39,175 nucleotides of DNA, taken from the IMG/VR virus record IMGVR_UViG_2627853910_000005, one strand, 5' to 3'. Position 1 is the first letter of the stretch. Every line of letters starts with the position of its first letter. Source of the stretch: a virus. Taxonomy: Duplodnaviria > Heunggongvirae > Uroviricota > Caudoviricetes. The translations under genes were made by a program, and so were the position numbers. Positions 30,930 through 31,026 of this stretch are shown here, in pieces. The notes below the pieces were generated by a model. That model ran no database searches. It was not told the DNA's origin and worked only from the letters and a program-made list of their open reading frames with translations.

Positions 30930-31026
30930 ATAACCTCCACATATTGCGTGATGAGCATATTATTTCACGCAAATATTTTGCGCAAGTTGATTTGCTTAAC
31001 GCGCAATAAAGAAATGTAATAAACGC
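30930..31026. promoter_or_regulatory. Immunity-region operator/promoter interval
   Basis: Four copies of a TTGCGy / rCGCAA half-site, including a perfect 11-bp inverted repeat ATATTGCGTGA(13 bp)TCACGCAAATAT and the palindrome TTGCGCAA, between the divergent repressor and cro-like starts. Confidence 0.6.

Follow-up and report, generated by a model that had tools for sequence, protein, structure and literature searches.

The stretch of DNA analysed here, referred to as the window, comprises 39,175 nucleotides of a prophage of the Caudoviricetes. The following genes and signals lie around positions 30930 to 31026.

30125 to 30676, minus strand: gene for a CII-like regulator (YmfL / CP76 family), overlapping the end of cro by 8 bp
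30669 to 30929, minus strand: gene for an 86-residue Cro-like protein with an XRE-type helix-turn-helix (HTH) domain (Pfam HTH_3, 5.8e-10)
30935 to 30939, minus strand: GGAGG ribosome-binding site before cro
31027 to 31719, plus strand: gene for a 230-residue CI-like repressor with an N-terminal XRE/434-type HTH and a C-terminal Peptidase_S24 domain
31740 to 31757, plus strand: intrinsic terminator 3' of cI, identified by a terminator scan (seven pairs, then a T run)

The interval between the two genes spans 97 bp and has a G+C content of 35%. Its description in the initial annotation as lying between divergent CI-like and Cro-like genes is borne out by the limits of the open reading frames and by Pfam, which places HTH_3 in both proteins (1.1e-10 for CI) and, as had also been claimed, a Peptidase_S24 domain in the repressor (6.5e-19). 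The locus accordingly has the divergent repressor and cro genes around a short control region that define a lambdoid CI/Cro switch. Since the cI-cro interval of lambda is also about 100 bp in length, compactness is not a distinctive property of the interval examined here. The repressor belongs to PHROG 4 ('transcriptional repressor'), while homologues of the cro gene in PhiR63_1, mEp460, SfII and Stx2a_1447 carry the annotation Cro. The gene that overlaps the end of cro matches Phage_CP76 (Pfam, 7.9e-15) and PHROG 101 ('CII-like transcriptional activator', 5e-72). A Shine-Dalgarno sequence was not found upstream of cI. The terminator that follows cI is annotated as a terminator in SfII, and a hairpin with a T run is present in most relatives.

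The immunity type is already known, being shared with 1720a-02, SfII, mEp460, PhiR63_1 and Stx2a_1447. Identity across the cI-cro region is 96-99% to PhiR63_1, mEp460, 1720a-02 and Stx2a_1447, and 92% to SfII, and the region was found in 1060 of 5426 complete E. coli genomes (∼20%).

In order to define the operators, the window was compared with 12 relatives, giving a set of 13 loci from phages and prophages of Escherichia, Shigella, Salmonella, Klebsiella, Citrobacter and others. The CI proteins of the relatives are between 97% and 66% identical to that of the window, and their recognition helix reads DAANISRLETGKQ or DGANVSRVETGKQ, the same as that of the window or nearly so. Alignment of the 13 loci revealed a conserved 15-bp dyad, TTGC-N7-GCA(A/T), as the operator unit, which is present at four positions around cI.

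30944 to 30958, no strand assigned: operator site A, TTGCGTGATGAGCAT, overlapping the predicted PR -10 by 2 bp and covering the predicted PR start
30992 to 31006, no strand assigned: operator site C, TTGCTTAACGCGCAA, covering the predicted PRM -35 (TTGCTT, 30992 to 30997) and 9 bp of the spacer
31775 to 31789, no strand assigned: operator OLa, TTGCATATCTCGCAA, an exact match ranked second by the matrix described below
31799 to 31813, no strand assigned: operator OLb, TTGCATAATGCGCAA, an exact match ranked first by the matrix, with its left half forming the predicted PL -35

Relative to the cI ATG, site A lies at -83 in 12 loci and at -84 in the thirteenth (L013); its TTGC and GCAT are the same in every locus, and its centre differs. 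Site C, which has the form TTGC-N6-CGCAA, is located at -35 in the same proportion of loci and at -36 in L013, where every distance between an element and the cI ATG is 1 bp greater. The centres of both sites vary freely among loci. Exact TTGC-N7-GCAA matches, which include site C, OLa and OLb, number five in the 39 kb against 1.5 expected, and three of the five flank cI. Additionally, a symmetric matrix was constructed from 29 sites of the relatives only (consensus TTGCGTAATACGCAA, 16.8 bits) and used to score the ∼39,000 positions of the window. The four highest scores were those of OLb (20.8), OLa (18.8), C (17.3) and A (15.5), followed by a next-best score of 10.9; the maximum in shuffled windows averages 12.5. 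Because shuffled sequences can yield single scores of this kind, the case for the operators is made by two other features, their concentration in 870 bp around cI and the conservation of their positions. Two sub-threshold operator-like matches were also noted within the range of the shuffles, namely TTGCTCGCGACGCAA (29523 to 29537, score 9.5), which lies inside an O-like replication gene, and ATGGGCGTCACGCAA (35603 to 35617, score 10.9).

A motif search near the early-left promoter, which the initial annotation had suggested as a check, thus yielded two further sites, OLa and OLb, just 3' of the cI terminator. The two are 24 bp apart, and an equivalent pair with a spacing of 22-24 bp is present 3' of cI in 11 of the 13 loci, in flanks that have diverged. 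The two best matrix matches of the window therefore form the second operator cluster, beyond cI and at the predicted early-left promoter, that is expected of an OL region. Sites A and C for their part provide several dyad operators over both promoters of the interval, an overlap that depends on the promoters being placed as predicted. These two sites are 48 bp apart, and no OR pair was seen with the 22-24-bp spacing present at OL.

The promoters were assigned as follows.

30957 to 30962, minus strand: predicted PR -10, TAATAT, 17 bp downstream of a -35 TTGCGC (30985 to 30980)
31015 to 31020, plus strand: predicted PRM -10, TGTAAT, separated by 17 bp from TTGCTT and by 6 nt from the cI ATG
31799 to 31804 and 31822 to 31827, beyond cI: predicted PL, with its -35 in the left half of OLb and a -10 of TATCTT

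All three assignments are inferred from conservation and geometry only. The columns GCAT.TTA at the PR -10 are invariant in the 13 loci, as is TGTAAT at a fixed distance from the cI ATG. The TATCTT of PL is also conserved, and the geometry of OLb relative to PL is the same as that of site C relative to PRM, with an offset of 23 bp in both. Transcription from PR is predicted to start near position 30950, a point within site A that leaves ∼20 nt to the cro ATG; for PRM the predicted start is the A of the cI ATG or a base adjacent to it. A leaderless cI mRNA is implied, because the predicted PRM -10 ends 6 nt before the cI ATG, and such a message would fit with the missing ribosome-binding site; the cI message of lambda is leaderless. 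A consensus promoter scan did not report the PR, PRM or PL candidates. The predicted -35 hexamers of all three match the consensus at only three of six positions, which would explain why PR and PRM were missed by the scan. The sole promoter that the scan placed in the interval, TCCACA-16-TATTAT on the plus strand, is not conserved and was rejected.

Experimental evidence on this type of immunity is available for phage 1720a-02 (KF030445), whose intergenic region is identical to that of the window except for one nucleotide, G30953A, in the variable centre of site A. Its CI is identical at 226 of 230 positions with none of the four differences in the HTH, its Cro is identical over the HTH, and the OL pair is present; the window prophage differs in being without portal and capsid genes. 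Modelling with AlphaFold3 in a 2025 preprint placed a dimer of the 1720a-02 Cro protein 20-39 bp upstream of cI, and placed the Cro site of the related phage phiNP 12 bp upstream of cro, which is the position of site A (bioRxiv 10.1101/2025.01.01.630987). In window coordinates, the former site corresponds to 30988-31007 and contains site C. In the modelled Cro protein, Arg32 contacts a guanine on each strand (bioRxiv 10.1101/2025.01.01.630987), and its counterpart in the helix of CI is Arg34, in ISRLE. The same work showed that Cro is required for lytic growth of 1720a-02 and that it represses the lytic promoter of a related co-resident prophage (bioRxiv 10.1101/2025.01.01.630987). The published work on 1720a-02 offers one modelled 20-bp Cro site per control region, with no map of A, C, OLa, OLb or the candidate site X described below and no CI binding data; neither a footprint of CI or Cro nor an OL map for this immunity type was found in the literature searched. 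As a separate observation, the cI gene of 1720a-02 (L019, KF030445, 1973-2620, 'regulatory protein') is annotated in GenBank 15 codons short, giving 215 residues from a start at 1973, and the conserved ATG for the 230-residue protein lies 45 nt upstream of the annotated start, directly after the TGTAAT box.

Between sites A and C, and within cro, lie three further elements.

30978 to 30987, no strand assigned: invariant block TTGCGCAAGT, including the palindrome TTGCGCAA, at -49 from the cI ATG and identical in 13 of 13 loci
30967 to 30972, no strand assigned: half-site ACGCAA, lineage-specific, the right arm of the inverted repeat proposed in the initial annotation
30894 to 30908, no strand assigned: candidate for a distal operator, X, GTGCGCCTTACGCAC, in frame with codons 8-12 of cro

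The block TTGCGCAAGT carries the predicted PR -35 on the minus strand and one consensus half-site without a matching partner. Indeed, the 15-mers that begin at 30978 or 30971 have matrix scores below 0, and in both directions the partner half, at a distance of 11 bp, is degenerate. As regards an OR2-type third operator, therefore, this half-site block is all that was found, there being no full site in 12 of the 13 loci; it may represent a weak OR2-like site, or just two back-to-back -35 elements. A lambda-like OR with three operators, in which TTGCGCAAGT would serve as a weak OR2 (30978-30992 or 30971-30985) that fills cooperatively, represses PR through its -35 and activates PRM from a position of about -42, is possible but not the reading we favour. 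The block carries a perfect half-site, is invariant in the 13 loci and overlaps the predicted PR -35; the predicted PRM start lies 42 bp downstream of the centre of 30978-30992, matching the geometry of OR2 in lambda, and the block of locus L009 reads TTGCGCAAGTCGCAT, a full TTGC-N7-GCAT match. However, the partner half is degenerate in the other 12 loci, with a matrix score below 0, and the rightward reading shares 1 bp with site C, the two centres being 14 bp apart, such that this site and site C could hardly be occupied together. Moreover, two back-to-back -35 elements would explain the invariance equally well.

Candidate X has a core, TGCG-N5-CGCA, that is invariant at -133/-134 in the 13 loci, and it persists in two loci with a lost or truncated cro gene, L010 and L011. 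Of the codons that it covers, Leu8 is always TTG, Arg9 always CGN and Ser/Ala11 always NCG (TCG or GCG), whereas the nearby Leu5, Arg6 and Leu16 use several codons. Since codon choice is fixed inside X while that of its surroundings varies, selection at the DNA level is suggested. The matrix score of X in the window is only 9.0, its outer bases being off consensus. These features could feasibly be combined in a layout unlike that of lambda, comprising two full OR operators 48 bp apart, no true OR2, a half-site palindrome of the TTGCGCAA type doubling as the PR -35, and an operator X in cro that possibly loops with the OL pair, in the manner of the intragenic OD site of lactococcal phage TP901-1. 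This arrangement is put forward as a speculative one that is rather unlikely to be correct in full.

The initial annotation had approached the interval through its TTGCGy/rCGCAA half-sites, of which it counted four. All four positions were recovered, with the palindrome TTGCGCAA (30978 to 30985) matching on both strands and so giving five strand-hits, at 30944 (plus), 30967 (minus), 30978 (plus), 30980 (minus) and 31001 (minus). Nor is the half-site common throughout the genome, which would have spoken against the proposal: TTGCGY is under-represented across the window as a whole, with 39 matches against 61.7 expected from shuffles, and the clustering is real, since five matches in 97 bp have a Poisson P of ∼3e-8. 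The claimed 11-bp perfect inverted repeat with a 13-bp spacer did not withstand inspection. Its arms, TTGCGTGA (30944 to 30951) and TCACGCAA (30965 to 30972), have 13 nt between them and are perfect over 8 bp only, and extension by three more pairs to 11 bp requires a 1-nt bulge at A30973. When the interval was shuffled 2000 times, a perfect 8-bp inverted repeat arose in 85 cases, and among 403 real tiles of 97 bp from the window 24 contained one; because 4-6% of comparable stretches have one, the repeat alone is not beyond chance.

The right arm of this repeat includes the ACGCAA half-site at 30967-30972, which is present only in the window, 1720a-02, SfII and L006-L008, the closest subgroup. 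Loci L002-L004 and L009-L013, among them those of S.Typ Adana, Kp4873-4 and Eeyore, are without it but keep the same or nearly the same CI recognition helix; this indicates that the operator unit is not TTGCGTGA-N13-TCACGCAA. None of the 15-mers that contain ACGCAA scores above 0 with the matrix, and it is probably no operator half. The proposal of overlapping operators at both promoters consequently stands as far as a switch with a family of dyad operators sharing a TTGC(G/A) half-site is concerned, but its anatomy, meaning the way in which half-sites were paired, does not. That anatomy consisted of 29-bp inverted repeats, TTGCGy-N17-rCGCAA (30944-30972 and 30978-31006), bound by a repressor dimer or tetramer across more than two helical turns. 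Both units do exist in the window and are equal in length, the region forms a 32-nt, 72%-complementary palindrome centred near 30975, and the ACGCAA arm is kept in the closest subgroup. Nevertheless, with the right arm of the first unit missing in eight more distant loci, the OL sites beside cI being 15-bp dyads, the 8-bp repeat falling within chance expectation and the 20 bp under the AlphaFold3 Cro dimer matching the 15-bp site C, the 29-bp units are very improbable as operators. That the TTGC motifs are only promoter -35 elements within an A+T-rich promoter architecture is scarcely credible, for although three half-sites coincide with the predicted -35 hexamers (30980-30985, 30992-30997 and 31799-31804), the conservation is dyad-symmetric with the GCAA halves 11 bp away invariant too, OLa and site A have no -35 role, and the Cro protein of a near-identical phage represses transcription via such a region.

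The repressor has the residues expected of a self-cleaving protein. Ser144 (GDSM) and Lys181 (VKRL) align with the Ser/Lys dyads of LexA (S119/K156), lambda CI (S149/K192) and UmuD (S60/K97). The closest solved structures are those of a 434-type N-domain and UmuD, the former match, to a designed 434 domain, being one of low sequence similarity (E ∼2e-4). The scissile bond is probably Ala99-Gly100, within an ASAG motif that does not vary among the seven CI sequences read over their whole length. This bond is given as probable rather than established because MAFFT places Gly106-Gly107 under the Ala-Gly bond of LexA; residue 107 is Ser in four relatives. The HTH of Cro is of the P22/434 type. The recognition helices of CI (AANISRLE) and Cro (PATLSRIE) are similar as judged by eye only, and BLASTP of the CI N-domain against Cro gave no alignment.

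Induction of phages of this immunity type has been described. In 1720a-02, mitomycin C raises the amount of attP DNA 234-fold, with 8-fold less in a recA mutant, and toxin production requires RecA (PMC6328086). Induction by UV has been shown also (bioRxiv 10.1101/2025.01.01.630987), such that prophages of the 1720a-02 immunity type are induced by mitomycin C or UV in a largely RecA-dependent manner (PMC6328086; bioRxiv 10.1101/2025.01.01.630987). By analogy, the prophage in the window should respond to DNA damage, as the initial annotation predicted, even though it is without capsid genes.

The latter defect was evident from comparison with the best genome match, an intact-looking prophage in NZ_CM129875.1 (locus L001), relative to which the window has the following remnants at the flanks of a deletion.

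15385 to 15540: C-terminal remnant of the major tail protein
15573 to 15836: N-terminal remnant of the portal protein

The statement that the prophage cannot make capsids agrees with this comparison, in that the portal and capsid genes are missing through a 5.56-kb deletion, the junction of which (window 15574/15575) joins L001 positions 14816 and 20378. The deletion has removed the prohead protease/major capsid fusion and the head-tail genes together with the greater part of the portal gene. In the region of the junction (15385-15836), the remaining C-terminal part of the major tail protein is fused to the N-terminal part of the portal protein. The junction was present in no complete E. coli genome of the collection. 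The opposite view, namely that the capsid claim was wrong given the terminase, portal and capsid genes of the NZ_CM129875.1 match, was dropped once direct comparison had shown 5.56 kb to be missing.

Taken as a whole, the locus is in our judgement very likely to be a lambdoid prophage immunity switch, governing lysis and lysogeny, with 15-bp TTGC-N7-GCA(A/T) operators. CI and Cro most likely bind the 15-bp dyads as dimers, with half-sites about one helical turn apart, although binding by CI, together with any order of site occupancy, is inferred. Occupancy of site A would turn off the rightward-type promoter PR, and with it cro and cII, thereby stopping lytic transcription, whereas occupancy of site C by Cro or by excess CI would turn off PRM and hence cI. 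Such a scheme would cover the shut-off of PRM, but not how PRM escapes repression or is activated in the lysogen. The 24-bp spacing of OLa and OLb would suit cooperative binding, and OLb overlaps the predicted PL. Following DNA damage, activated RecA (RecA*) would be expected to stimulate self-cleavage of CI via Ser144 and Lys181, probably at Ala99-Gly100, freeing PR and PL. Induction would then lead to excision, replication and expression of lysis functions with no capsids being made, because the portal and capsid genes are deleted.

This scheme may be compared with the generally known features of lambda OR and OL. Common to both are divergent cI and cro genes ∼100 bp apart, dyad operators over back-to-back promoters, a leaderless cI message (predicted here), a second operator cluster downstream of cI with ∼24 bp between sites, and an S24 repressor with a Ser/Lys dyad. 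In contrast to lambda, Cro here has an XRE-type HTH rather than the lambda Cro fold, the operators are 15-bp TTGC-N7-GCAA sites, no full OR2 can be made out clearly, OL has only two evident sites, and a candidate site lies inside cro. Phages 434 and P22 resemble the present system in that repressor and Cro both have XRE-type HTH domains with similar recognition helices and read the same short dyad operators, but sequence similarity is low, and the half-site sequence and the spacing of OR sites differ. The published model of 1720a-02 Cro is closest to P22 Cro (bioRxiv 10.1101/2025.01.01.630987). In element e14 of E. coli K-12, as in the window, a gene for the CII-like YmfL follows cro, and the genes stand in the same overall order. 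An e14 immunity identity, prompted by the neighbouring gene being annotated as YmfL, was nevertheless rejected: YmfK aligns with CI over the S24 core only (38% over 39 residues, BLASTP), YmfT is unrelated to Cro, and the e14 intergenic region has TGTAC/GTACA motifs and no TTGC-N7-GCAA site. The locus therefore has neither the YmfK/YmfT homologues nor the operators of the e14 type, and a search of the literature on ymfK, e14 and operators returned nothing relevant to the present immunity type. Distant CI homologues of ∼40% identity (Turner, SPLA1b, Mulock and Fraca) were also discarded as guides to the layout, their N-domains and intergenic motifs being unrelated.

As a discovery the switch carries little weight, and its novelty is low, because the immunity type is common, occurring in ∼20% of complete E. 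coli genomes, and has already been studied in several phages. These include an Stx2 phage used in a mouse disease model; 1720a-02 is an Stx2dact phage. The additions made here are modest: the operator is defined as a 15-bp unit, a pair of OL sites is located, and attention is drawn to the OR2-like block and to the candidate site within cro. The gain is a testable operator map for this immunity type (A, C, OLa and OLb, with X and the TTGCGCAA block as candidates), which could help to interpret the reported cross-repression of co-resident prophages by 1720a-02 Cro.

Several other features of the window were noted. Between the predicted PL and the first annotated gene (yfdP-like, 32441-32803) lies a stretch of ∼600 bp (31830-32420) with no convincing open reading frame. 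An Rfam search of 30000-33000 gave no match, and the fold of 31830-32120 does not stand out (z = -1.3). In relatives this position is occupied by either of two conserved leaders, the one reading …ACAGGCAGGA(C/A)GCCCACGAAGTAGCC… being common to S.Typ Adana, Eeyore and the e14 element of K-12. The leader could be an antitermination site (nut- or put-like) or a region encoding a small protein. Between the early-left genes and the integrase, a 531-codon open reading frame on the plus strand (36189-37784), designated 'anti-phage dCTP deaminase' in a near-identical genome, looks like a prophage-borne defence gene. Finally, the annotation of the near-identical genome, transferred to the late region by subtracting 4806 from L001 coordinates, places a Qin-like block of cold-shock and small-protein genes (cspI, ymcF, ynfN, gnsB, cspB, cspF and ynfU) around the lysis genes at ∼19600-24800.
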